Source: a virus
Lineage: Duplodnaviria; Heunggongvirae; Uroviricota; Caudoviricetes
Direction: 5' to 3' (one strand)
IMG/VR virus record: IMGVR_UViG_2531839479_000007
Length of the DNA: 32,745 nt
Shown: positions 1-29,359 of the stretch, one piece after another
How positions within the stretch are numbered: position 1 is the stretch's first letter
Layout: each line of letters starts with the position of its first letter
Translations under genes and position numbers: made by a program
The notes under the pieces: model-generated
Seen by the model: only the letters and a program-made list of their open reading frames with translations
Told to the model about the DNA's origin: nothing
Databases searched by the model: none

Positions 1-852
1 CTAGGATATCTTTCCATGACATTCTTTGAAGCGTTTTCCACTCCCGCAATGACATAAGGCATTTCTTGACATAGATTGTGGTGGACTCAAGTCAATTTCG
101 CTAAGCATCGAAAGTAATTCCTCTGCTGCAATTGCTTCTCCAATCATAACTTGAGTTAGACTTCTCATATGAATCAATAATTCTGCTACAATTTGAGATT
201 CTACAAAACTTTTAGTTTCTCCAGCGTCATTAGTAGCGGTATAGGTGACGCCACTCATATTTTCAGACAAAGCTTCAATAGCTGATTGATGGTATTGACT
301 GATAGGAGCATGCTTACTCACTACAATACCTATTACTTTATTATCTGAAGCTTTTAAAAGAGCTCCACCAGAATTTCCTGAGTTAAATGCCCCATTTACC
401 ACTAGATGTTTTTTTTGTCCCTTGGCGGTTTGGTATGAGTTAAATCCTGCTAGATAACCAACGGATAGTAACGGTGCAGGACCGTTGTATCCTAATGGGT
501 ATCCCCAAGTTGTTACTGATTCACCAACTTTAAGATCATTATCCTTAACAATACTTAGCCCACCAGTCTGGGTAATGGCAGGTCTCAGCACAGCTAAATC
601 GCGATCAGAATCTATCCATTTTTGAGAAATTGGAATCTTCTGTCCATAAGCTGAAATTGCGAAAATCTGATTTGTAGAGCATCCAGTGATAACATGCTCG
701 TTCGTTACTATTAACCCATTATCTATTAAAAAACCAGATCCTTTCGAGCCTGTCGCAGGACATATAATCATATAAACAGAATTTACTGATGAGCGTCCAA
801 CTTCACCCGTAGCGTCTAAAGTCCATTGAGTAGATATGGGGATATTGTTCAA
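1..852 (-). CDS. Trypsin-like (S1 family) serine protease with C-terminal SEC-C metal-binding motif; flanking gene outside the prophage
   Basis: 283-aa ORF; His/Asp/Ser triad contexts TNEHV, DLAVL, GNSGGAL; C-terminal CHCGSGKRFKECHGK matches the SEC-C motif; TTG start at 850-852 with AAGGAG 8 nt upstream; TAG stop at 1-3; visibly AT-rich. Confidence 0.6.
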   Translation of the reverse strand: MNNIPISTQWTLDATGEVGRSSVNSVYMIICPATGSKGSGFLIDNGLIVTNEHVITGCSTNQIFAISAYGQKIPISQKWIDSDRDLAVLRPAITQTGGLSIVKDNDLKVGESVTTWGYPLGYNGPAPLLSVGYLAGFNSYQTAKGQKKHLVVNGAFNSGNSGGALLKASDNKVIGIVVSKHAPISQYHQSAIEALSENMSGVTYTATNDAGETKSFVESQIVAELLIHMRSLTQVMIGEAIAAEELLSMLSEIDLSPPQSMSRNALCHCGSGKRFKECHGKIS

Positions 853-1010
853 AACTGACTCCTTTATTTATAAACTTTTGTTAAATGGCTTGCAGTCTTA
901 TATTCGTTATTTATAAAAATTTAATTAGCTAGTTTATTTTTTGCCCCCCCAAAAATTTCTCAATTGATTCTCAGTTAATCCAATATGCAATTGCTGTCAT
1001 GGATATATAT

Positions 1011-1024
1011 CCTTCTTATTTTTA
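1011..1024. other. Putative left prophage junction (attL core-like CTTATTTTT); position approximate
   Basis: ccttCTTATTTTTa shares CTTATTTTT with the right-end core; composition turns GC-richer just to the right; a second weaker candidate TTTATTTTTT lies at 943-952. Confidence 0.25.
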
Positions 1025-1120
1025 AGGAATTTTACACATATAACTAACGTTAGTCACTCTCTAGAACCCGCTCCTGGCACTTTGCCGACGGAAATGTACT
1101 TAACATAACTGATCTAAAAG

Positions 1121-1148
1121 TTGCAAAAAGCCCCGCATTCGCGGGGCT
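1121..1148 (-). terminator. Intrinsic terminator downstream of ogr
   Basis: Stem AGCCCCGC / loop ATTC / GCGGGGCT at 1129-1148, followed on the minus strand by TTTT (plus 1125-1128); a T-rich run also follows on the plus strand, so possibly bidirectional. Confidence 0.55.
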
Positions 1149-1158
1149 TTCTCGTTTG

Positions 1159-1380
1159 TCACATCCAGTGAATTTGTTGCTGACCTGATGATGTCGGATG
1201 CGGCGGCGCGGGGACTACTTCCCCCGGCGACACGATAAAACGCTCGACTGTTTCAGTGGTCACAAACGTGCAGCTGCAGTTAATGTTTGTGCACTGGTGA
1301 TACCGCTCTTTTGTGGTATCAGTAAAATAGCGACTCGTGCGGGCGTGGGCGGCATGATGGCATTTCGGACAATGAAACAT
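1159..1380 (-). CDS. ogr: Ogr, zinc-finger late-gene transcription activator
   Basis: MFHCPKCHHAAHARTSRYFTDTTKERYHQC... closely matches P2 Ogr; CxxC...CxxC zinc finger; ATG at 1378-1380 with GGAG upstream; ORF-track start at 1404 is TTG. Confidence 0.9.
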   Translation of the reverse strand: MFHCPKCHHAAHARTSRYFTDTTKERYHQCTNINCSCTFVTTETVERFIVSPGEVVPAPPHPTSSGQQQIHWM

Positions 1381-1460: not shown

Positions 1461-2624
1461 TTAAACTTCCTCGCTTTCATACTCCACATCAGAAACCTTA
1501 ACCTCAAGCTCTAAGCCCGTCGTGAAGCCGCTCCCGTTGAGGCTGTGTACCACACGACTGATTATCCACGCCTGCTCGTCTATAACGCGCTTAAAGCCTT
1601 TCACTGCCACCGGCGTTTCAGGAAATAAATCAGCGCGGCCAGTGGCGAGCGTGATCGAAAACTCCGCCACCCCACGCTGTATCCTGTCCCACTTTGCCTG
1701 AGCTGCGCGCATGGCCTGCGCCTTTGTCGCGTAGATGGTCGTGAGTTCCAGAACATTGTCGGACTCACCGGCCATATACTCACCTTCCCGCGCTTCCTGC
1801 ACCTTCTTCTTTTTAGCCTTTGCCGATGTTTTAGCAACCTTCGGGTGCTGCAGCGCACGCAGGTGCTGCTCTTTGGGTTTGCGCTTGAGCTTCACCTTTT
1901 GCTTTTGCGGTTTCGGGTCTCTGGTGTGCAGCCATTTAGCGGTTACGCCGGAGTATGCCTCGCGGTCGGCTATGGCAAACTGATGCCGGTCGCCGTCGCC
2001 GCGTTCGACGGTCATTTGCGGGATGGCCTTACCACTGGCCGTCATCGCGCTACCGGCTTTCAGGAATAACAATTTCCCGGCCTTGACCGAAACCGTTGCC
2101 CCGTTGCGATCCGCCAGTCGGGACAAAAACGCCGCGTCGGATTCCTGAGACTGGTCAATATGCGGCACAGCAACAGCTTTCAGGGTATCAGCCACGCTGG
2201 CCGTCAGTTTGTTACGCTGCGCGATAGTCTCGACAATCACCCCGAGCGTGGTGTCGTGCCATGACTGCTCGCGGCGCGAGTTCAGCGTCCCGCGAAAATC
2301 CGCACTGCGTCCCCGGATAGTCAGCCTGTCAGGCGCGCCCCGGTGCTCGATTTCGTCAACCGTAAAACTCCCTTTGTTAATCAGCGCCGAGCCCTGCCAG
2401 CCCAGCCACAGGGTCAGCGATGCCCCGCGCGGCGGCAACTCGACCAGTCCATCGGTATCATCGAGCTCGATATCAAGCTGGTCAGCCTCGAATCCGCGAT
2501 TGTCGGTCATGGTCAGCCCGATAAGCCGGTCGCTGAAATTCTGTGTGATATCTGCGCCACCGAGCGTGAGCATAAAATCAGGAGCAATGCGCGCCCCGGC
2601 CTGAATAGTCATTCCCGTTATCAT
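1461..2624 (-). CDS. D: Tail protein D (late control gene D)
   Basis: 387 aa, same length as P2 gpD; ATG overlaps U stop (ATGA at 2621-2624); synteny. Confidence 0.9.
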   Translation of the reverse strand: MITGMTIQAGARIAPDFMLTLGGADITQNFSDRLIGLTMTDNRGFEADQLDIELDDTDGLVELPPRGASLTLWLGWQGSALINKGSFTVDEIEHRGAPDRLTIRGRSADFRGTLNSRREQSWHDTTLGVIVETIAQRNKLTASVADTLKAVAVPHIDQSQESDAAFLSRLADRNGATVSVKAGKLLFLKAGSAMTASGKAIPQMTVERGDGDRHQFAIADREAYSGVTAKWLHTRDPKPQKQKVKLKRKPKEQHLRALQHPKVAKTSAKAKKKKVQEAREGEYMAGESDNVLELTTIYATKAQAMRAAQAKWDRIQRGVAEFSITLATGRADLFPETPVAVKGFKRVIDEQAWIISRVVHSLNGSGFTTGLELEVKVSDVEYESEEV

Positions 2625-3085
2625 CCCGCCAGCCCCCCGAGCCAGTTACCGGCAGACGTGACCAGATTATCAGCCTGCGTTTTCAGGTCGCCGTAGATGG
2701 CCGCGAGGGATTCATCCACCCGCTTAAGCGACAGGCTAAACTCGATTTTTTTAGCCGCGCCGTCGCTGAATAACTCGGTGTGGTTGTGAGTCACTTTATC
2801 GATGACATACATCCCGTGGATCATGCCGGTTCCGTCAATCAGCGGCCATGCGCGCCCCTCATCGGCCATCAGTTCGATGGCCATCAGTGACAGACGCCCG
2901 CCGGTGATTTCAGGGTAAAGCGTGCCCGACAGGGTACGCGAGGTTTCCCCCTCCCCGAGATACTGATAAGCCGGGGGTTTTCCGATACGGTCATTTGACA
3001 CCCAGCGGTAGTCCTTCGAATACTGCATTGACTGATGCGGCAGGGGGCGCCGTTCAAACACGAAAAAGCCCAGCCCCATTAACAT
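2621..3085 (-). CDS. U: Tail protein U
   Basis: 154 aa, gpU-like; GAGGGAGGG RBS upstream of ATG at 3083-3085; synteny. Confidence 0.9.
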   Translation of the reverse strand: MLMGLGFFVFERRPLPHQSMQYSKDYRWVSNDRIGKPPAYQYLGEGETSRTLSGTLYPEITGGRLSLMAIELMADEGRAWPLIDGTGMIHGMYVIDKVTHNHTELFSDGAAKKIEFSLSLKRVDESLAAIYGDLKTQADNLVTSAGNWLGGLAG

Positions 3086-3098
3086 TTTTATCCCTCCC

Positions 3099-5540
3099 TC
3101 AGTCGAGTCTCATACTGGATCGCTGACGCGCACGTTTCTCGCGGTCAAGTTTGTCGACCGCGTCACGGAGCTGGCGGTCAAGGTCACTGCCCGGTGCGAC
3201 TCCGCCCTGCAGGTTGATGTTGTATTCGCTTTTGCTCTGGTCGATATAAGACAGGCCTGCGGGCGCTGTGACCGGCTGATACGCCTGATACCCGCCATAA
3301 CCTGCGGTCGCAGGGATATACCCGCCATTCGGGGACGCCTTATTCGCTTTCGCTGCGGTCTGGTCGAGGTCGCTGGATTCTTTTTTGATAACGCCGAGTT
3401 TCTCCAGCAGCCAGCCGACCTTGCCGCTCAGGCTGTTAAACATCTTGAGCGGCATCATCAGCGCATCAGCCAGCGCCTGGCCAAAAGTAACGCCGACATT
3501 TTTGCAACTGGAGAGCGTGTCCTGCGTGGCTTTCACCGGCGCAAGCAGGTCTTTAAACCACTGGCAGACGACACCCAGCTTTTCAGCGATGGCGTCAAAC
3601 ACCGGCGCGAGCGGGGTAAACATGTCCCCCACCGGTGCAAAGGCGGCTTTCAGTCCCTCCACCACGCCCGAGAAGAATGCACCGAGCGGCTCCCAGTATT
3701 TGCGGATCAGCAATGCACCGGCCACCACTGCACCGGCTACCGCCAGCACCGGCAGGCTGATTGCGCCAATGGCCGTGACAATCGCGCCGCCGACCGTACT
3801 GAAAACCACACCGAGCACGCCAGCCGCCGCAATGATGGCATTAATCCCCATCACCACCGGCCATGCGACAAGGCCAATCCCGCCCATCACACCGATCAGC
3901 GCCAGCGCACCACCAACCACCACGCCGAGGGTGGTCGCCAGCCCTTTATTTTTCTGGATCCAGCCGTCGAGCCTGAGCACATATTGCGTGGCCGTCTGCG
4001 TCAGCTTACGCAGTGAGCCCTCCTGCTGATCAAACAGGTCAGTGCCGACCGCCTCATAGGCTGACTGAAACTCTTTAAAGTCGCCGCCGAGGTTATCCTG
4101 CATAACCTTAACCAGTTCCTCAGTCTTACCGTCTGAGGCTTTAAACGCGGCGGTGAGCTGGTCGAGCTTGCCGCTTGATGCGGCGGCCATCAGCACGGCG
4201 GCCGCCGAGCTGGCCTCTTCACCGAAAATGGTTTTCATGTATTCGGATTTCTGACCCGTTCCGAGATTGTTTTTCTCAAAACTGCGCTGCATTTCTTTCA
4301 GGATGGAAAATATCGGGCGCGTATTGCCTTTGCTATCTGACGTTTTAATACCGAGCTCTTTGATGGCGTCGTACGCTTTACCGGTTGGCGCCTGCAGGCG
4401 ACTCAGAACGGCACGACTCCCTGTACCCGCCATCGAGCCGGTGATTTTGGAATCGTGCAGCGCCCCCACCATTGCGGCGGTTTCTTCGATACTTACCCCG
4501 GCATTTTTCGCCACTGGCGCGGCATAGGTCAGCGCATCACTCATTCCATCAAAGTCGGCGGCGGTTTTGTTCATCGTCATCGAGAGAACATCACCAATAT
4601 GCGCGACTTTATCGTTAGAGAGCTGAAAAGCAGATTTCATGCCTGTCAGCAGCGCAGCGTTTTCTTCCATCGTGCGCTTGTTCGACAGCGCCATATTCAG
4701 TGTGACCGGCGTCGCCGCCTGAATGGCCGCCGCATCGCCGCCGCTTTTGGCAATGATAATCTGCGCACCCGCCGCATCATCGGCAGAGGCAGCGGTATTA
4801 TCACCGAGCTGGCGCGCCTGTTTACGCAGCGCCTGCATTTCAGGCGACTGTTTGTCGACACCGAGCACGGCCTGCAGCTCTGAGTTTTTCTGTGCAAATT
4901 CATAACCAAGCGTCAGCAGCTTAACCCCGGCGAGGGTTCCCGCCGTCGCAATACCAACACCGGCTGCGCCAGCCGCCGCCGCGTTTCCGGCCAGTGATTT
5001 ACCGGCCTGATACCGCGCTTTCACCCGGCTTAACTTCGCCTGCTGTGCGCTGACTTTCGCCAGTGCCTCACGCTGCCGATTAAGCTGCGCGGTAGTCTCA
5101 CTGATGCGCGATTTAAGCCCCCGCTCATCATTTGCCAGATTACGGGTATTAATACCGACTGCACCGAGTTCACGTTGCTGGCGCTTAACAGACTCAGTGA
5201 GGCTGTTGTATTTCGTCTGCAGCCCGTTGGCGGCACGCTTTGCCGATTCAAGCACCTGCGCCTGCGCGCGCGTCGGGCGCTCGGTGTTTTTAAATTGTGT
5301 GGCAAGGGCTTGCGCTTCCTGTTTCGCTTTCTCAAGCGAATGACCGGTCACGGCAAGCTGGGCGCTGGCTTTGCGGAATCCGTCAATACGGGACGCCTGC
5401 ACATTAAGTTCGCACAGGCTTTTTTGTGAATTGCGGATATCACCAGACAGGGATTTGCTGGCGTTCTGAATCGCTTTAAGCGGGCGGCTTGCCCGGTCAA
5501 CTGCGTTCAGCAGCACCTCGATTCTGACGTTATTGCTCAT
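3099..5540 (-). CDS. T: Tail tape measure protein T
   Basis: 813 aa; Ala/Gly-rich central hydrophobic segment and coiled-coil-like N-terminal part typical of tape measure proteins; position between E/E' and U. Confidence 0.9.
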   Translation of the reverse strand: MSNNVRIEVLLNAVDRASRPLKAIQNASKSLSGDIRNSQKSLCELNVQASRIDGFRKASAQLAVTGHSLEKAKQEAQALATQFKNTERPTRAQAQVLESAKRAANGLQTKYNSLTESVKRQQRELGAVGINTRNLANDERGLKSRISETTAQLNRQREALAKVSAQQAKLSRVKARYQAGKSLAGNAAAAGAAGVGIATAGTLAGVKLLTLGYEFAQKNSELQAVLGVDKQSPEMQALRKQARQLGDNTAASADDAAGAQIIIAKSGGDAAAIQAATPVTLNMALSNKRTMEENAALLTGMKSAFQLSNDKVAHIGDVLSMTMNKTAADFDGMSDALTYAAPVAKNAGVSIEETAAMVGALHDSKITGSMAGTGSRAVLSRLQAPTGKAYDAIKELGIKTSDSKGNTRPIFSILKEMQRSFEKNNLGTGQKSEYMKTIFGEEASSAAAVLMAAASSGKLDQLTAAFKASDGKTEELVKVMQDNLGGDFKEFQSAYEAVGTDLFDQQEGSLRKLTQTATQYVLRLDGWIQKNKGLATTLGVVVGGALALIGVMGGIGLVAWPVVMGINAIIAAAGVLGVVFSTVGGAIVTAIGAISLPVLAVAGAVVAGALLIRKYWEPLGAFFSGVVEGLKAAFAPVGDMFTPLAPVFDAIAEKLGVVCQWFKDLLAPVKATQDTLSSCKNVGVTFGQALADALMMPLKMFNSLSGKVGWLLEKLGVIKKESSDLDQTAAKANKASPNGGYIPATAGYGGYQAYQPVTAPAGLSYIDQSKSEYNINLQGGVAPGSDLDRQLRDAVDKLDREKRARQRSSMRLD

Positions 5541-5999
5541 GATGGCTTCCGCTTCGTTGCAGCGCCTTATCGCGCCATGTCAGGAGCTCGGTCACACTCA
5601 GGGAATTTAGCTCTGATGGCGGCCAGTGGAAGATCACCGCAATATCCGCCATCAGGTCATCGACCGACAGTTTTTCCGGGAAGGTCAGCGACCCGAAGCT
5701 GGTGACAAAAAACCGACCACCTTACCGGCCAGTGAAATCAGGTCTGACGCATCCAGACGCGCGAGCTCGTGCTCGGTCAGTGCCGGATATGTCATGCGCG
5801 GCAGCACCTTAATCAGCGCATCAACGTCGGAATTTGCCAGCGACGCCAGCGACACCCCGCGCAGGGTTCCCGCATTCGGTTTGGTTAAGGTGACCTGCTC
5901 AACTTTCTGCTCACCGCGCATCAGCGGGGTGTCAAAAATAACGACATTCGGATTGACGTTCTCAGTGTCAGCAACAGCAGTCTCATTGATATTTTTCAT
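5530..5999 (-). CDS. E: Tail assembly chaperone E+E' made by programmed -1 frameshift (slip at 5706-5712)
   Basis: Zero-frame reads GGT TTT TTG at the slippery heptamer; the -1 frame then stays open to TAA at 5530-5532, overlapping the T start, as in P2 E/E' (about 156 aa total by my count). Confidence 0.7.
5685..5999 (-). CDS. E: Tail assembly chaperone E (zero-frame product)
   Basis: 104-aa ORF, ATG at 5997-5999, TGA at 5685-5687; gpE-like sequence and position upstream of T. Confidence 0.85.
   Translation of the reverse strand: MKNINETAVADTENVNPNVVIFDTPLMRGEQKVEQVTLTKPNAGTLRGVSLASLANSDVDALIKVLPRMTYPALTEHELARLDASDLISLAGKVVGFLSPASGR
5706..5712 (-). other. Slippery heptamer T_TTT_TTG (minus strand) for the E/E' -1 frameshift
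   Basis: Plus-strand CAAAAAA at 5706-5712; in the E frame the codons are GGT-TTT-TTG, matching the X_XXY_YYZ pattern. Confidence 0.7.
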
Positions 6000-23058: not shown

Positions 23059-24171
23059 TTAACCAACCCTTGCTTTTTTATATGGACCACAACTCCAACT
23101 AAAGAAATTCTTACCTAACTTATACCATTTATCAGAAAGCACTGGTGTTAGGTGAGGATTATATTTTTTTAAACTTCCCTTTTGTATATATTTCAATGTA
23201 TTGCTGAGCAAATTCTCTCCAAAACCATCATAACTTACACAAGCAGCGTTGCAGCTACAACGTTTTGATTCGATATACTCACAATCATATTTTATATCAA
23301 GCTTCTTTAATATCGGACGCCAATATGCACCATGTTTTCGATCGAGTTCAAGGGCTGTTTTAAAATCAAAACCTTTTTTATGGTCAATATAAAATTTTAC
23401 TGATTCATCTACGGAGCAAAGATGCTTAAAGAAAATGAGAGATTTTTCTTTTTGTTGCAATTGACTTTGACTTCTTAATACATCTTCAATTGTCGATAAA
23501 GGAACTAGAGATTCTATTTCATGTACATCTAAAATCTCCACGAAACCTGAGCGAGTAATTTGTGAGCCCAAAAAATGTGAGCAAGTACCTCCGAATGGGG
23601 CTCCAGGATGTTTTTTGTCATTATCCACAATACAAAAAACTATCTCATTATTTTGAATTGCACGCTCGAATATATCCTTAGTACTGCCCCCACCGCCATT
23701 TAGAGCGATAAAACCCATTTCGCAGCGAGATAAGTTAATACCTTCGGCATAATGAGCCGCTATAACCTTAAAAAAATCAGAATCCAAAGGATTTTCACAT
23801 ACTATTTTCGTTTTTTGCAATTGTGCCGAGTCATTAAAATACAATGGACCACAAACAAATTTAAAAGATTCACCGATCTGAACCCATTTAAATGATTTAT
23901 CACTAATATTAAAGTCGACAGATACATAAAATGAGACCTGATCCAAGATAGCATAGTACTCTGTTAGACCCGACAAAGCCTCTTGCGCGTAACTTTTTGA
24001 TGAAAGGCTATAAAGCCCGCTTTGATCATTGATAATAGTTTTAAAAAAAACCCTTGCCCCTATAACCAAGTGTTTTTGTTCAGCGAATGCCCGAAGTATA
24101 TTTTCAACCGCTATGGCAAATGAGTTATTTAGCACCTTCTCAGGTGTCGCATTTTCGATATTAATCAACAT
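23059..24171 (-). CDS. Cargo gene 2: 370-aa partner protein of the ATPase, unknown function (possible Toprim-like E...DxD core; Cys-rich C-terminus)
   Basis: ATG at 24169-24171 only 2 nt after the ATPase TAG stop; AT-rich; ...RCEMGFIALNGGGGS...IVFCIVDNDKK... could be Toprim-like; C-terminal CEYIESKRCSCNAAC cluster. Confidence 0.6.
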   Translation of the reverse strand: MLINIENATPEKVLNNSFAIAVENILRAFAEQKHLVIGARVFFKTIINDQSGLYSLSSKSYAQEALSGLTEYYAILDQVSFYVSVDFNISDKSFKWVQIGESFKFVCGPLYFNDSAQLQKTKIVCENPLDSDFFKVIAAHYAEGINLSRCEMGFIALNGGGGSTKDIFERAIQNNEIVFCIVDNDKKHPGAPFGGTCSHFLGSQITRSGFVEILDVHEIESLVPLSTIEDVLRSQSQLQQKEKSLIFFKHLCSVDESVKFYIDHKKGFDFKTALELDRKHGAYWRPILKKLDIKYDCEYIESKRCSCNAACVSYDGFGENLLSNTLKYIQKGSLKKYNPHLTPVLSDKWYKLGKNFFSWSCGPYKKARVG

Positions 24172-24173
24172 AA

Positions 24174-25730
24174 CTACTTACCCGAGAAAAAGCCAACCGG
24201 CCAATTTTTTAGGAAACCATTCTCGTCAAAATAAGATTTCTTAACTATAGTCTGCTGCTTATCATCTTTTTCAAATACCAGTATTGAAATATCATCCTGT
24301 GAAAGACTTTCATTTTCCTCAATATATTCACCAAGTGCTTCAATCATGGTCTGGCTATGTGTCTCAAAAATTATCTTCAAATCTACATTATTTTCTTTTG
24401 CTTTAGTTACTACTTTTGCAAAAATACTTGCTAAATTATGCTGATATGACGGATGTAAATGCAATTCTGGCTGCTCAATGATAAATGTTATAGGTTTTCT
24501 AACCGTGGTAGCACGACGTTCTGTCTCAAGCCAAATGGCTGTAACTATCGGCAAAACCTGAGAATAACCAAACCCCATATCACTAACATTATAGTTCTCA
24601 CTATTTTCACCGGTGTTTATTAAAATTGCAAAGTGAGAGCCACTTTGTTCAACCTTGATAATGAAATCAAAATTTAACTTTGTCCAATCTTCAAATTTTG
24701 ATTTATCAGCCGGTCTTAATGAATTCAAAAGCATTGCAAGATTGGAACCAGTATGATCTATCTCATTAACCTGTAAATCTTGAAAACGATAAAATCTTTC
24801 TGATGTAGCACGCAGTGGAGCTATGTACTTTACATTTCTGAATGAATCTGACAAGGATGTATTTATTATATCTATAAGATTATTAATATTCCATCCAATT
24901 ATAAATGGATATAACTCATTCATTATTTCATCATGTTGAAATTCAAAGTTTCTACTAAAAACTTTTTGTTCCTTAAATAGAAAAGCAACTAATTTACTAG
25001 CGTACGCTTTGGGTATAAAGCCAATTCTTTTGAATGCCTCTGTCACTTGATTTATATCAGATTTAGTATGGAAATATTTCTTTATATATTTCGCCGCTGA
25101 ATCAATAAATGACAATTCTAACGCCCTGTCATGCCTAGAATGTCTCAAATAGAATGATGTGCTTGGAGGAGGACTGTCTTCCTTACCCTTCAAAATTAGA
25201 TTTGGTATGAACTGCCCAAGATTTTTAGCTATTATCCCATCACGCTCTATTGTTTTATCATCTGATTCAATGAGTAATTTAACATTACTACTCTCATCCA
25301 TTGAAATAAATATTGTTAAATCAGCCAATATAAGCTTAATCGTTTTCGTTTTTGTTTTTTTATCTTTAGAGTAAACAGTTAACTCTGCTTCAATATCTGT
25401 TGGTTGCTTTGCTAAATCAGTAGAACGATAATATGTATATCTTTGTGAAACCTCTGGCGGAATTGAGAGTGAAAAACTAAACGTAATTTCTTTTTTTTCA
25501 GAGTTTCGGGAAAGTACATCTGTAAAATCGCCAAAATCCACATATCTCCCATACCATAGTATTGGGCCAGTAGTATTTTCTTCTACAGATTGACGAAGTA
25601 AAGGAAATGTGCGCAATAGGGAACTTTTACCACTGCTGTTCTTACCAACAAATACTGTAATTGGTTTTAAATCAATAAACGTTTTGTTGACAAAGCTCCT
25701 GAAGTTTTGAAGACCTATACCCTTAATCAT
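24174..25730 (-). CDS. Cargo gene 1: ABC/OLD-family (AAA_15/AAA_21-like) ATPase without a C-terminal Toprim domain
   Basis: Start set at MIKGIGLQNFRSF (ATG 25728-25730, GGAG 6 nt upstream); Walker A GKNSSGKSS, Walker B/D-loop ITFIIEQPELHLHP, H-loop IIFETHS; ORF-track start at 25802 is TTG inside the cos-like sequence. Confidence 0.75.
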   Translation of the reverse strand: MIKGIGLQNFRSFVNKTFIDLKPITVFVGKNSSGKSSLLRTFPLLRQSVEENTTGPILWYGRYVDFGDFTDVLSRNSEKKEITFSFSLSIPPEVSQRYTYYRSTDLAKQPTDIEAELTVYSKDKKTKTKTIKLILADLTIFISMDESSNVKLLIESDDKTIERDGIIAKNLGQFIPNLILKGKEDSPPPSTSFYLRHSRHDRALELSFIDSAAKYIKKYFHTKSDINQVTEAFKRIGFIPKAYASKLVAFLFKEQKVFSRNFEFQHDEIMNELYPFIIGWNINNLIDIINTSLSDSFRNVKYIAPLRATSERFYRFQDLQVNEIDHTGSNLAMLLNSLRPADKSKFEDWTKLNFDFIIKVEQSGSHFAILINTGENSENYNVSDMGFGYSQVLPIVTAIWLETERRATTVRKPITFIIEQPELHLHPSYQHNLASIFAKVVTKAKENNVDLKIIFETHSQTMIEALGEYIEENESLSQDDISILVFEKDDKQQTIVKKSYFDENGFLKNWPVGFFSGK

Positions 25731-25801
25731 TCCTAGCTCCATTAGTTCAATAAAATCAATCGATTTTGAGACAATCTTAATATCTTTGACAGGCGCGCGC
25801 A

Positions 25802-25820
25802 ATGCTTACCCCGCCTCGCC
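25802..25820. other. cos-like site (19-nt cohesive-end sequence)
   Basis: Minus strand reads GGCGAGGCGGGGTAAGCAT, 17/19 identical to the P2 cohesive end as I recall it (GGCGAGGCGGGGAAAGCAC). Confidence 0.55.
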
Positions 25821-26102
25821 TGCCCGCTTTATGGGTCGTTTTTAATGCAGTTGCATGACCACTCTGGATCCGCGCCTGCTCTGGCGGCGCGCGGCCAGAA
25901 CAGGCATCCCCAACGTATGCAAAAAAATGCACCTGTTGCATGCACGGCTAAAAAACCGGGAAATTGTGGGAAAATTGCATAATAAAACCGACTTTAATCG
26001 TGCCGGTTGGGGGTGGTCTCTACGGTGCAGGCTAACGTCTCGCGGGGCTCGTTGCTCAACACCGCTGGCACTGAAAACAAGTTTCAGCACCGGCGGCGTT
26101 TG

Positions 26103-26342
26103 CTATGGTCGACGCGGTGGTGGCTTTGCCATATTTGGTGGCCGAAACGCCTCAATTTTCGGATTGCTGATATCGCTGTATTTGCGGTGATTATCCCGGA
26201 CGACACCGGCACACCCGACCAGTTCGTCAGGGGTCAGATTCTCGTTAATCATAATTTGTTGCAGGCGATGTACGACGGCCATCAGCTTAATGTTTTGCGT
26301 TGAATGTATCGGCGGCACTGGCATCATTCGCATATGACTCAT
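26103..26342 (-). CDS. Small hypothetical protein (79 aa) coupled to the DUF3850-like gene
   Basis: ATG at 26340-26342 overlaps the upstream TGA (ATGA); MSHMRMMPVPPIHSTQNIKLMAVVHRLQQ...; no recognisable family; ORF-track start at 26351 is GTG. Confidence 0.35.
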   Translation of the reverse strand: MSHMRMMPVPPIHSTQNIKLMAVVHRLQQIMINENLTPDELVGCAGVVRDNHRKYSDISNPKIEAFRPPNMAKPPPRRP

Positions 26343-26803
26343 TTTAACCACCCATTTTTTTTAGCATCTGCGACCAACTTGTCGGAATATTGCCAGACAC
26401 CATCATCAGCGATGTAAGCCCTACCAGAAACGCTGTTAAGTGTTTCATATCTAATAGCCAGCCCTAACGGGTGTAGAATTTCGTGATTAACTCTGAAAAC
26501 AAGCCCCTTCTCGCTTAACTCTTTCCAGTTCATTAGGGACATACCGCACTGGACATCTGGCATCATTAACTGAAAACTCAGCATCACATAATTTTCCGCC
26601 CATTCAGATAAATCCGTAACGTTTGTCACCCTCACTGATACACGTTTCCCGGTATATCTGTTTACCGGTTCCCATTCATGCAACCCGAGAATATCACCGC
26701 TAGAATAATCGCGGTCATTGAGACGAAATTCAGCACGTTTTTCCTGAGATATCACAGAGTTAAAATACTCAGGTGCAATTTTTAACTCATGGATTTTGCT
26801 CAT
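26339..26803 (-). CDS. DUF3850-like (ASCH/PUA-like) domain protein with ~75-aa C-terminal extension; accessory gene coupled to A
   Basis: Start set at MSKIHELKIAPEYFNSVISQEKRAEFRLNDRDYSSGDILGLHEW (ATG 26801-26803 overlapping the A stop, TAATG); motif resembles DUF3850 as I recall it; lower GC than A. Confidence 0.55.
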   Translation of the reverse strand: MSKIHELKIAPEYFNSVISQEKRAEFRLNDRDYSSGDILGLHEWEPVNRYTGKRVSVRVTNVTDLSEWAENYVMLSFQLMMPDVQCGMSLMNWKELSEKGLVFRVNHEILHPLGLAIRYETLNSVSGRAYIADDGVWQYSDKLVADAKKNGWLK

Positions 26804-29094
26804 TAATTCTGCTCCTCTTGAATTGAGAATCCCGGCCACTCATCAGCAGCCGCGTATTTGATTTTTTTATCGCCATAAATCACCGTTGCCCCACGCGCCA
26901 GCGCTTCGAGCGCCCACCGTTCCGGGGTAATGCCCTCCTGAGCCAAATCGAAACGAATTTTCGCCACGCGATCCCTTTCTGGTTTTGTCATCCTGGCTGA
27001 TGGAGCTTGCTCGCTCGTTTTGAGTGGCGCATTGCTTCTTTGCTGGCGATTATTGCGAGGTGCGCCAGCTTTTAACGCGCCGTTAAGAACCTTCATGACG
27101 TCTGGCTCATTCCAGCCGATAACCCCGGCCTCAATCAGATTTAACACCGCTGCGGCTTGCTCAGACGGTGTAGGTGTCATAACTGGATCGCCACCGTCGG
27201 CAAGCTTTCCACAGTTATTGACAGGACTCCGAGGCGCGGCAGAGCCGCTTTTTAAGGTCAAAGGCTCAACGGCCAAAACCTTTGGAACTATGCGCCATTC
27301 CGCTGTACGGGTTACATGTACGCGGCTCACCCCAAGATGAGGGGCATAAATACCGACCACTTTCTCGATATCCTCCTCGTATTCGTTTACCTCATCCGTC
27401 ACCTTACGGGCGACCCTGACCGCCTGAGCATCACGCGGCATGTTTGCCCCACCCTGCGCGCTGATGTACAGGTCAAATTCCCCCTCATCTGCAGCAGCCC
27501 GGACGGCCTCGACACGGTCGTCAAACTCGCTGGCGATACTCACCCCGCGCGGCAGCTTACGCAGTTCGCGGTAAGCGCCCATTGTCGGGAGGCCAATCGG
27601 TTTAAACTGAGGGATACGCCATGTAGACGCCCATGCGGTTACGGCTGCGGCCGTATCTTTCAGAGATTTGCCGGTATCGTGATCGAGCTGACCGTCAAGC
27701 GCGTAGCCGTCGATATTTTTGGCAATGTATTTGGCGATATAACCCGCCGCGCCCCCCTGATTAAGGTGACGCGACTCAAAGCGCTGTTTTGCCGCGCCCT
27801 TTTCGTGTCCGTCCTCTTTGAGGGCATAACGACGCATAATTTCGTTGATAGCTTTACGCTGACTGAGTTTGCAAAAAAGCATCATATGCCAGTGTGGCGT
27901 GCCGTCGTGGTGCGGCTCGACAACGCGCATCCCATACACTTCCAAATCGTTATCTTTGAAAGCGGTACGCATCAGGCTCCAGATTCGGCACAGATAGCGC
28001 TGGCCGTTTTTAGGGGTGAATGCGGTTTCGTTCCAGCCGTGATTGAGCTGCACCGTTTTGCTGTCACCTTTGCCGACCTGTCGGGTCGGGTGATACTTCG
28101 ACGGCGTGGTCAGCGTGATAAACATTCCCACATCACCAACGCTGGCCGCATAGCGTTCAATTCCGGCAATGGTGTTCATCAGCTCCATACGGCGTATTTC
28201 AGGGTTTGAAATACTCCCCATGACTTTACTGATGAGGTCGATACGTTCGCCGGTAACTTTGTTTTCCAGCTCACAGGATTTCAGGTATTCGAGATTAGCC
28301 AGCCGGCGCGAGTGAACCTCGCGGATCGCCATTTTGCTGGCGTAAGGTGAACGGTCTTTGTTGACTTCACCGGCAGCGATAAGCAGCGCCTCGCGCCAGC
28401 GCATACGCTGCGCCTTGAGCTGGTTAACCCACCAATCATCTTTTATCAGACGGGAAATAGCGGAAAACGCCATGCGGATCGTCATCTGACCCTTACGGTA
28501 TTTTTTCCAGTAGAGCGGGGTTAAGTTGAACGCGCGTGCAACACCAGCCACCTGACCATATATGTGCACCTGCGCCTCATCGGTGAAAAGGGTCTCTTTA
28601 CCGCCGAATGCCTCAGCCCATTCGTCGCTGAGTTCCTCGTATTTACGCCAGAGCTGCGCGGCAATTCTGGCCGCAAATTTTTTCAGCTCTTTGTCATTCA
28701 TATCAGGCAAGCGCGCATATTCGTCACGCTCAGACAAGAAACCAATCGACGCAGATTCATTCATCCCGCACAGCTCGTTAACGCGCTCAAGACGCGGCAA
28801 CAGCTTCCGCTCAAAGGTGTTTTTCAGGAAATAGAGCGCCCCGGGCGGGCTCTTTGTGCGACGAATGAAGTTATAACGGGAAGTAAACAACGTCTTAAGA
28901 AAGAAAGGCAGGCGGTCAATCCGGTATAAAACACCTTGCACCTGACGGAATTCGGCACGTGTAAGGGGTCTGTCACGGCCAATGGCAGCGCGGGGAGCAT
29001 TCCAGGGATAAGCACCAACGAAAGTATCGCCGGTGCGCTTAGATATTGGCAGGGCTAGCGAGGGGGCAATACGCCCCCGAGTCTCAACGGCCAT
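26803..29094 (-). CDS. A: Replication initiation protein A (rolling-circle nickase)
   Basis: Start set at MAVETRGRIAPSL (ATG 29092-29094); 763 aa; extensive identity to P2 gpA as I recall it, including ...VVEPHHDGTPHWHMMLFC... Confidence 0.9.
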   Translation of the reverse strand: MAVETRGRIAPSLALPISKRTGDTFVGAYPWNAPRAAIGRDRPLTRAEFRQVQGVLYRIDRLPFFLKTLFTSRYNFIRRTKSPPGALYFLKNTFERKLLPRLERVNELCGMNESASIGFLSERDEYARLPDMNDKELKKFAARIAAQLWRKYEELSDEWAEAFGGKETLFTDEAQVHIYGQVAGVARAFNLTPLYWKKYRKGQMTIRMAFSAISRLIKDDWWVNQLKAQRMRWREALLIAAGEVNKDRSPYASKMAIREVHSRRLANLEYLKSCELENKVTGERIDLISKVMGSISNPEIRRMELMNTIAGIERYAASVGDVGMFITLTTPSKYHPTRQVGKGDSKTVQLNHGWNETAFTPKNGQRYLCRIWSLMRTAFKDNDLEVYGMRVVEPHHDGTPHWHMMLFCKLSQRKAINEIMRRYALKEDGHEKGAAKQRFESRHLNQGGAAGYIAKYIAKNIDGYALDGQLDHDTGKSLKDTAAAVTAWASTWRIPQFKPIGLPTMGAYRELRKLPRGVSIASEFDDRVEAVRAAADEGEFDLYISAQGGANMPRDAQAVRVARKVTDEVNEYEEDIEKVVGIYAPHLGVSRVHVTRTAEWRIVPKVLAVEPLTLKSGSAAPRSPVNNCGKLADGGDPVMTPTPSEQAAAVLNLIEAGVIGWNEPDVMKVLNGALKAGAPRNNRQQRSNAPLKTSEQAPSARMTKPERDRVAKIRFDLAQEGITPERWALEALARGATVIYGDKKIKYAAADEWPGFSIQEEQN

Positions 29095-29359
29095 CAGCAC
29101 AAAACGCGGTCTGACATTGCAGTCCCAACTGCTCGACCTGCTCACCCAACGCCGCAAAACTATCAGCACCGCCATTTAAAAGGTCATGTAGCACCAGACC
29201 AGAAATCAGTTTTTGAATCGTCGGGTAATCCCCGACAGTATCAAGCCATTCGCTACCTTTATTTTTTCCAGCAGTCGCCACTTTCTTTTCCTGCAAAATG
29301 AACTGGTAGCGATCGCTTGTAACTACATACTGATGATTTATCTCGATACGGATACTCAT
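29084..29359 (-). CDS. Hypothetical early protein (91 aa), P2 orf82/83-like position
   Basis: ATG at 29357-29359 with AAGGAG 6 nt upstream; TGA at 29084-29086 just before the A start. Confidence 0.6.
   Translation of the reverse strand: MSIRIEINHQYVVTSDRYQFILQEKKVATAGKNKGSEWLDTVGDYPTIQKLISGLVLHDLLNGGADSFAALGEQVEQLGLQCQTAFCADGR

Follow-up and report, generated by a model that had tools for sequence, protein, structure and literature searches.

The closest described relatives of the two genes studied here are phage genes. Yersinia phage L-413C carries orf91 directly after the replication gene A, the stop codon of A overlapping the start of orf91, and encodes there a DUF3850 domain followed by a DUF7415 domain, and Salmonella phage PSP3 carries orf37, which encodes gp37 (69 amino acids (aa)) and is the last conserved gene before the cos-proximal region. 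We analyzed a stretch of 32,745 nucleotides (nt) from IMG/VR virus record IMGVR_UViG_2531839479_000007 (Duplodnaviria; Heunggongvirae; Uroviricota; Caudoviricetes), called the window below, in which positions 26,103 to 26,803 hold, on the minus strand, a homolog of each: gene 1, of the orf91 family, and gene 2, a small open reading frame (ORF) of the PSP3 orf37 family. The early (replication) operon of a P2-family Escherichia coli prophage ends with these two genes, and both belong to known, uncharacterized families. We think it probable that they are two real, dispensable genes coupled to A, one an intact orf91 whose product would bind nucleic acid and the other encoding a small protein linked to ClpX.

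The region is 100% identical to a prophage adjoining yegR in E. coli WP2-S18-ESBL-07, and at least 80% of the query was present in 51 of 5426 complete E. coli genomes. Read along the minus strand from gene A to cos, the locus has the following features.

26803..29094, minus strand: replication gene A of the P2 gpA family, a rolling-circle initiator (Pfam Phage_GPA, E 5.7e-109; "replication endonuclease" in PGAP, with the PGAP start)
26812..26817, minus strand: Shine-Dalgarno (SD)-like GAGGAG, read from the sequence, 8 nt 5′ of the gene 1 ATG and within the 3′ end of gene A
26339..26803, minus strand: gene 1, 154 aa, DUF3850 plus DUF7415, by sequence a full-length P2 orf91 ortholog (PHROG 1812, E 4.5e-51)
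26573..26794, minus strand: DUF3850/ASCH (PUA-like) domain, gene 1 residues 4–77 (PF12961, PF04266, PDB 3IUW)
26363..26542, minus strand: DUF7415 domain, gene 1 residues ~88–147 (W..EL...GL..R.N.EILHP.GLA....S....DG.W.Y)
26348..26353, minus strand: SD-like GGGTGG, 5 nt 5′ of the gene 2 ATG, made of Gly-Trp codons at the end of gene 1
26103..26342, minus strand: gene 2, 79 aa, PSP3 orf37 (gp37) family (PHROG 11386, E 1.1e-29), with a hairpin at residues 15–59 and a disordered tail ending in PPPRRP
26058..26100, minus strand: RNA-type hairpin with a stem of ~18 base pairs (bp) (fold z-score -2.7; covariation)
25977..26008, minus strand: terminator-like hairpin and U-run (AACCGGCACGAUUAAAGUCGGUUUUAUUAU), counterpart of phage 186 terminator t95b
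25802..25820, minus strand: presumed cos cohesive-end 19-mer GGCGAGGCGGGGTAAGCAT, 283 bp past gene 2, the end of the virion chromosome

Gene A, which is 73–74% identical to P2 A, runs directly into the two genes. Its stop codon (TAA, 26805..26803) has A26803 in common with the start codon of gene 1 (ATG, 26803..26801), giving TAATG, and the stop codon of gene 1 (TGA, 26341..26339) overlaps the start codon of gene 2 (ATG, 26342..26340) as ATGA, exactly the two overlaps that the original prediction had described. The 1-nt overlap between A and the DUF3850 gene was present in all 39 related loci of this arrangement, and P2 and L-413C keep an A/orf91 overlap too, as ATGA or TAATG, so these overlaps are not chance. 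No promoter-like site was found between gene A and genes 1 and 2 in a scan of 25700..27000. The lower guanine-cytosine (GC) content that had been pointed out is also real, with 42–44% in gene 1 against 52–60% in gene A. Judged from their synteny and by analogy with P2, whose biology underlies this view, genes 1 and 2 would be expressed from the early promoter and in lytic growth only.

Both genes are annotated by PGAP/RefSeq, gene 1 as "DUF3850 domain-containing protein" and gene 2 as "hypothetical protein". PGAP puts the start of gene 2 at Met4 (26333). Homologs keep Met1 and not Met4, and Met1 is favored as the start because the first ATG and its SD sequence, GGGTGG in the window, are kept in varied upstream contexts.

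The first protein had been recognized as DUF3850/ASCH-like, and Pfam agreed. DUF3850 (PF12961) matched residues 4–77 along the whole profile (1–77 of 77; E 1.4e-18, 67.2 bits against a gathering cut-off of 22.9), and ASCH (PF04266) matched with an E value of 5e-6 (27.5 bits against a cut-off of 21.2). Residues 3–79 also matched residues 8–82 of PDB 3IUW (phmmer, E 1.7e-7), and PHROG 986, named "RNA-binding protein", matched residues 1–85. The protein contains the motif K22-x-x-E25-x-R27-x-N29-D30, reading E-K22-R-A-E25-F-R27-L-N29-D30-R; Iyer and colleagues are said to have given the ASCH motif in 2006 as K-x-x-E-x-R; (R/K)-x-N-D then follows. The counterpart of this segment is EFRKNDR in L-413C and in the P2-type record NC_070904, and EFRKKDR in canonical P2.

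The N-terminal 77 residues of gene 1 are alike to the ASCH/PUA-like superfamily, including the Enterococcus faecalis DUF3850 protein of 3IUW, E. coli YqfB, and ZmASCH, whereas DUF7415, which gene 1 has besides, is missing from the characterized ASCH proteins. YqfB is an N4-acetylcytidine amidohydrolase and ZmASCH a single-stranded RNA RNase; we know of no DUF3850 member with a known activity. By analogy with this superfamily, the predicted ASCH/PUA-type beta-barrel of gene 1 would bind RNA or modified or single-stranded nucleic acid. DUF3850 is also shared with the ParB-CTPase-DUF3850 fusions, which are enriched in phages and prophages and have a predicted role with RNA or nucleic acid (PMC12704722), but gene 1 has neither a ParB domain nor a parA neighbor and is fused to DUF7415 instead.

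Over 99% of its length, gene 1 is 53–54% identical to orf91 of L-413C (only ~53% for this phage) and of P2-type phages, and PHROG 1812 spans the full protein. A tblastn search of phage genomes returned 25 records with full-length matches at 46–54% identity, lying directly 3′ of gene A in every annotated record. On these alignments, gene 1 is a full-length, intact ortholog of P2 orf91 and not a replacement for it. The original prediction had placed the two genes where P2 carries orf91/tin/old, which was imprecise: gene 1 is itself orf91 (53% identity over 99% of the length), and the tin/old slot lies downstream and is empty.

The C-terminal extension that had been noted on the first protein does exist, but it is not an extension of unknown function as proposed, being an independent Pfam domain, DUF7415 (PF24187; residues 91–130, E 2.2e-8, 34.6 bits against a cut-off of 27). 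Gene 1 has all the invariant residues of this domain (N, H, G, A, S, G) as well as the near-invariant W, R, E, P, D, W, and Y. In an alignment-based search, 262 DUF7415 proteins came up, mostly stand-alone and 55–135 aa long, with a core of ~50 residues, and 802 phage records contain the domain, those of T5 and T4-like phages among them. In an AlphaFold 2 (AF2) model, it forms a small helix-helix-hairpin-helix (predicted local distance difference test (pLDDT) score 86). No fold relative was detectable, all named Foldseek matches in BFVD being DUF7415 proteins, and a literature search for DUF7415 found no paper on the domain. DUF7415 may be a dimerization or partner-binding module.

In the other phages (T5, T4-like Klebsiella phages, Vibrio nt-1, and others), the domain again spans ~50 residues and has the same invariant W, N, H, G, S, and D-G-W as gene 1. 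There, however, it stands alone or in tandem and lies near nrdD, Sir2, or HAD_SAK_2 genes instead of gpA; all of these proteins are uncharacterized. In phage T5 (2895..3725 of locus L179), DUF7415 occurs twice in tandem in both T5.106 and T5.107, which share an operon with nrdD, Sir2, and HAD_SAK_2 (RNA-repair type), and in T4-like Klebsiella phages a 77-aa DUF7415 gene overlaps the 3′ end of nrdD (KPV15, 2486..2719 of locus L180). The T5 pair, annotated "T5.106 similar to ORF91", was considered as a DUF3850 plus DUF7415 gene pair and rejected, as Pfam shows DUF7415 repeats and no DUF3850.

Canonical P2 carries a reduced version of this locus. The reference P2 Orf91 is only 109 aa long (NC_001895; 3817..4146 of locus L004). 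In a DNA alignment, P2 and L-413C are nearly the same as far as about codon 76 of orf91 and then diverge: past DUF3850, P2 Orf91 reads in frame through ~10 codons of the 5′ end of the small ORF (HRILGEILPL in P2, MHRIPGEIP in the small ORF) and then into cargo-flank sequence next to tin. DUF7415 and nearly all of the small ORF are lost from P2. Judged from this alignment, the Orf91 of canonical P2 is a truncated, chimeric protein whose origin lies at the site of the tin/old cargo. In L-413C (2498..2990 of locus L005), orf91 is intact and the small ORF stops after 13 codons, so that, given both the P2 chimera and the L-413C truncation, the small ORF has the cargo junctions within its 5′ end. 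Because P2 and L-413C are viable phages with these disruptions, plaque formation requires none of the three modules (DUF3850, DUF7415, and the small ORF).

In Wphi (3498..4166 of locus L002), "orf91" (93 aa) and "gp92" (64 aa) together make one frameshifted DUF3850-DUF7415 gene, and the small ORF is also split into two pieces, by sequencing error or decay. An identity of the small ORF with Wphi "orf92" was ruled out, as the BFVD match Q7Y4B6 and the coordinates show that gp92 is mainly the DUF7415 part of the frameshifted orf91; the correctly annotated counterpart of the small ORF is PSP3 gp37.

Gene 2 is truly coding and under strong purifying selection. It has 116 homologs across Enterobacterales prophages, one cluster of which occurs on at least 999 contigs, with the conserved core KLMA.VHRLQQIM.NENLTP.ELVGCA..VRDN and a site between gpA and cos/portal. 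The core (residues 11–53) has a median ratio of non-synonymous to synonymous change (dN/dS) of 0.08 with synonymous sites near saturation, and the head and tail have ratios of 0.4–0.5. The first ATG and an SD-like sequence 5–9 nt upstream were kept in all homologous contexts, and the genes found upstream are of at least five unrelated kinds, including orf91, a 61-aa hydrophobic ORF, a 90-aa ORF, and tum/dinI-type genes. In the AF2 model, helices at residues 15–33 and 38–59 (pLDDT ~90 for residues 21–50) are followed by a disordered tail. The tail is 18–32 residues long in the family and ends in PPPRR[PR] in 43 of 73 distinct coding sequences, with near variants in ~12 more; selection acts on the tail peptide, since its Pro and Arg codons vary synonymously.

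PSP3 gp37 is ~62% identical to gene 2 and shares the hairpin core and the PPPRRP end, but it has a shorter linker and follows tumA/tumB rather than orf91. The small ORF is unannotated in several phage records. No relatives of gene 2 were found in Pfam, NCBIfam, or PDB, and a comparison with ribbon-helix-helix antitoxins and repressors showed neither their fold nor their profile.

An exhaustive HMMER search of 1.84 billion cluster representatives with the gene 2 family profile returned 31 matches, which makes the family a narrow one. In six of the 31, more distant proteins of 101–122 aa (E 3e-12 to 2e-6), the alignment was restricted to the hairpin core, and these six carry a C-terminal zf-C4_ClpX zinc finger (PF06689, E 5e-11 to 6e-19). 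The finger of P0278, the sole one compared, matched the N-domain of E. coli ClpX (2DS5, 1OVX) at an E value of ~1e-15 with ~75–80% identity by hand count, making it a near-copy of the ClpX N-terminal zinc-binding domain (1OVX, 2DS5–2DS8). Finger-bearing homologs were located on ~45 P2-like viral contigs, downstream of gpA on the same strand and before the oppositely oriented portal gene. One occurs in phage P88 (4983..5315 of locus L263), where it is misannotated as "carboxylate-amine ligase", and another is orf93, "hypothetical", of the P1-like plasmid prophage D6 (3522..3842 of locus L264), so the family is not confined to P2-like phages. The family alignment shows one common core (KL..I..RLQ..M.NENITP.ELV.CA..VR), and the C-terminal end takes one of three forms: a Pro/Arg tail, a ClpX finger, or no appendage.

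The ClpX N-domain dimerizes and docks adaptor tails and some substrates. Since homologs of gene 2 carry its near-copy, the simplest reading would be that the family works on or through host ClpX, as a decoy, an adaptor, an anti-adaptor, or a short-lived factor controlled by ClpX. The redirection of Clp unfoldases has precedents in SPO1 Gp53, which acts on ClpCP (PMC6873191), and in ClpC2, a decoy of ClpC1 (PMC10030653). There, an N-domain ligand or partial copy redirects proteolysis, and the distant homologs of gene 2 carry a ClpX-type C4 finger. Literature searches on zf-C4_ClpX in phages and on ClpX precedents found no study of this architecture, and one on ClpXP with phage 186 found nothing useful.

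A more far-reaching proposal joins two claims, that the small-ORF family is an unrecognized phage module aimed at host ClpX and, separately, that DUF3850 plus DUF7415 form a reader or eraser of nucleic-acid modification with a counter-defense role; drawn from sequence, the two together strike us as rather unlikely. Under this proposal, one branch of the family would hold a captured copy of the ClpX N-domain, as a decoy or heterodimerizing mimic, and the branch of the window would instead present its basic PPPRR[PR] C-terminal peptide to ClpX. In lytic growth, this would recruit the helical hairpin to ClpX or keep ClpX away from one of its clients.

To place the two genes among related loci, two samples of 80 were used. 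The first consisted of IMG/VR loci chosen for having the small ORF. The order A, DUF3850-DUF7415, small ORF was found in 39 of these 80, and 32 had neither domain. Another five had DUF3850 and/or DUF7415 upstream of a 186-type A, one had a DUF7415-only gene downstream of A, and three were without gpA because the contig ends. The second sample was unbiased and anchored on gpA, with 80 loci from species-representative genomes. DUF3850 was found within 5 kilobases in eight of them, each time upstream, DUF7415 in one, and the small ORF in two; any of the three modules was present in 12 of the 80 and none in 68. A tight link of A with these modules was rejected on this rarity. The modules are recurrent, far from obligatory neighbors of A.

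Other layouts around A were also seen. Midge and other 186-type phages have a gene with DUF3850 only that overlaps the start of A, and some 186-type prophages have, directly upstream of A, a DUF5405(orf83)-DUF7415 fusion (1551..2024 of locus L078; ~700..1178 of locus L080) or DUF7415 alone; the orf83 homolog of the window itself (29084..29359) is without DUF7415. In Pseudoalteromonas, DUF7415 alone follows A after 10 nt, and in Aeromonas a separate DUF7415 gene follows A two genes before a separate DUF3850 gene. The Aeromonas neighbors of 76 and 111 aa were considered as relatives of the small ORF and turned out to be unrelated.

Genes 1 and 2 are accessory, patchy, and dispensable. The original prediction of accessory early-operon genes stands, the genes being absent from most gpA loci, disrupted in the viable P2 and L-413C, and without a promoter-like site; the co-expression in lytic growth is, as before, something that we infer.

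Past gene 2, a hairpin with an ~18-bp stem begins 5 nt after the stop codon and has no U-tract. Among 25 distinct homologous sequences, 9 of its 18 pairs show compensatory double changes, and G-U pairs are found on the mRNA-sense strand only. It had no Rfam match; it could stabilize the 3′ end, be a site of processing, or respond to the terminating ribosome. Positions 26102..25821 of the window align with the last 283 bp of phage 186 (30342..30624), including the annotated terminator t95b, whose counterpart in the window lies ~50 nt beyond the hairpin and is missed by a simple terminator scan because its loop is too long. The 19-mer at 25820..25802 follows, which we take to be cos from its resemblance to the cos of P2 and 186. 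Because the alignment with the 186 end and cos follow gene 2, genes 1 and 2 are the last genes on the right of the virion chromosome. Between the small ORF and cos, homologous loci have 210 to 3560 bp and the window has 283 bp; this gap is the classic tin/old cargo slot, here empty.

On the other side of cos, before the portal gene, a two-gene cassette on the minus strand (23059..25730) has a GC content of 30–37%. It encodes an ATPase (AAA_15/AAA_21/DUF3696) with PADLOC matches to NsnB (5e-55), PDC-M55A (7.5e-46), and AriA (7e-31), and a 370-aa partner with no Pfam match and a match to PDC-M55B (2e-4). This cassette is probably the defense cargo of the prophage, on the portal side of cos rather than on the gene A side.

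If the locus is, as we favor, an early operon ending in an intact orf91 and a ClpX-linked small protein, gene 1 would be translated by coupling to the end of gene A at TAATG, and so be made together with the replication initiator in lytic growth, and gene 2 by coupling to gene 1 at ATGA. The DUF3850 barrel would bind nucleic acid and DUF7415 would dimerize or bind a partner, the helical hairpin and flexible tail of gene 2 would act on or through ClpX, and the transcript would run on into the conserved stem-loop and then the terminator just before cos. Several points weigh against this account. The 79-aa protein of the window has no zinc finger (one Cys, no PF06689 match), and the ClpX link passes via the homology of the other domain only; its PPPRRP tail does not resemble the LRVVK tail of SspB; and P0269, P0271, and P0272 have neither tail nor finger, which means that the main role of the hairpin may not involve ClpX. 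ASCH proteins include enzymes (YqfB, ZmASCH, and an ASCH-like 5-hydroxymethylcytosine glycosylase), and "binding" may understate the activity of gene 1. DUF7415 and DUF3850 also occur in many phages without gpA, and the coupling to A may reflect only spare coding room in a compact operon. Finally, literature searches on Orf91 function and DUF7415 returned no biochemistry or genetics of the three modules.

The original prediction had also raised an anti-host or anti-defense role, in which the ASCH barrel would read or remove a modification or an immune nucleotide signal and the small protein would disable a host factor. The patchy, accessory distribution and the GC content below that of gene A would suit such factors, as would an early-operon site next to the gpA-gpQ diversity hotspot, and a link to ClpX would fit host manipulation. 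PUA/ASCH domains are modification readers and ASCH domains are often tied to DNA methyltransferases (PMC4738411, PMC7641849), and DNA methyltransferase genes (N6_N4, Dam-type, or C5) adjoin the modules in Wphi, a P2-type phage, Aeromonas, Pseudoalteromonas, and a Bacteroidales phage, but no methyltransferase lies near the genes in the window. In Pfam, NCBIfam, and PHROGs, neither protein drew the name of a characterized anti-defense protein (anti-RM, anti-CRISPR, anti-CBASS, or similar). The sole PADLOC match is insignificant (gene 1 to PDC-M11B, E 0.0027, 15.7 bits; none for gene 2), and the literature on Orf91 and DUF7415 gave no function of this kind. DefenseFinder found anti-defense genes, of Anti_RM and Anti_CRISPR types only, in just 28 of 1511 P2-like prophages (PMC13586616). 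The idea has found no direct support, and we regard it as possible, if unlikely. More doubtful is a role as helpers of replication in physical contact with gpA, binding for instance the displaced single strand or the nicked origin. Such a role would explain the translational coupling to A, and DUF3850 and/or DUF7415 abut A in several independent layouts (P2-type, 186-type, Pseudoalteromonas, and Aeromonas). Yet both domains are common without gpA (T5, T4-like, and many Klebsiella, Enterococcus, and Listeria phages), 68 of the 80 gpA loci do without the modules, P2 replicates without DUF7415 or the small ORF, and in a 30-kilobase phage nearly all early genes are close to A. Because the modules are not obligatory and the domains are common without gpA, we rank a dedicated gpA cofactor below an accessory early protein that takes advantage of coding room near A.

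It is highly improbable that the two genes are instead cargo for lysogenic conversion or exclusion, as tin and old are, which the prophage would express to keep other phages out. They do lie within the gpA-gpQ interval, the P2 defense hotspot of Rousset et al., with a GC content below that of A, but they have the orientation of the early operon, overlap its genes, and show no promoter-like site; they are backbone at a fixed position, with the true cargo slot downstream of the small ORF or beyond cos, and the ATPase pair at 23059..25730 is the likely cargo, whereas PADLOC gave no meaningful match for genes 1 and 2. As for gene 2 alone, its short length, the lack of a Pfam family, the adjoining conserved RNA hairpin, and its missing annotation in several phage records could suggest that it is not a gene and that its conservation comes from an overlapping RNA or DNA element near cos. 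This is effectively refuted by the core dN/dS of 0.08 with saturated synonymous change, the kept start codon and SD sequence, the tail peptide kept with varied codons, the homologs fused in frame to a zinc finger, and the AF2 core at pLDDT ~90.

For annotation, the analysis recasts P2 orf91 as a truncated remnant of a two-domain gene, and it adds a gene of 70–80 aa, often left unannotated, on which purifying selection acts strongly in P2-like prophages of E. coli and relatives. The kinship of the small-protein family with the ClpX zinc finger, and a DUF7415 domain of T5 and T4-like phages without structural or functional assignment, would be the points to surprise a specialist. The ClpX connection, if true, matters more, as the literature search found no phage proteins that copy or address the ClpX N-domain and ClpXP controls many phage and host regulators, such as lambda O, MuA, and HsdR (restriction alleviation).

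Decayed P2-like prophages at the yegR site contain a further variant. In two of them (5001..5596 of loci L177 and L178), the early region from cox to mid-orf91 is deleted, leaving a Cox-DUF7415 fusion of 129 aa. This fusion (P0145) and the "stand-alone DUF7415" proteins P0021–P0025 were considered as new architectures and discarded, as they are frameshift or deletion products of decaying prophages. At one of the two Cox-DUF7415 loci, a 68-aa gene is called right after the fusion, a putative small ORF.

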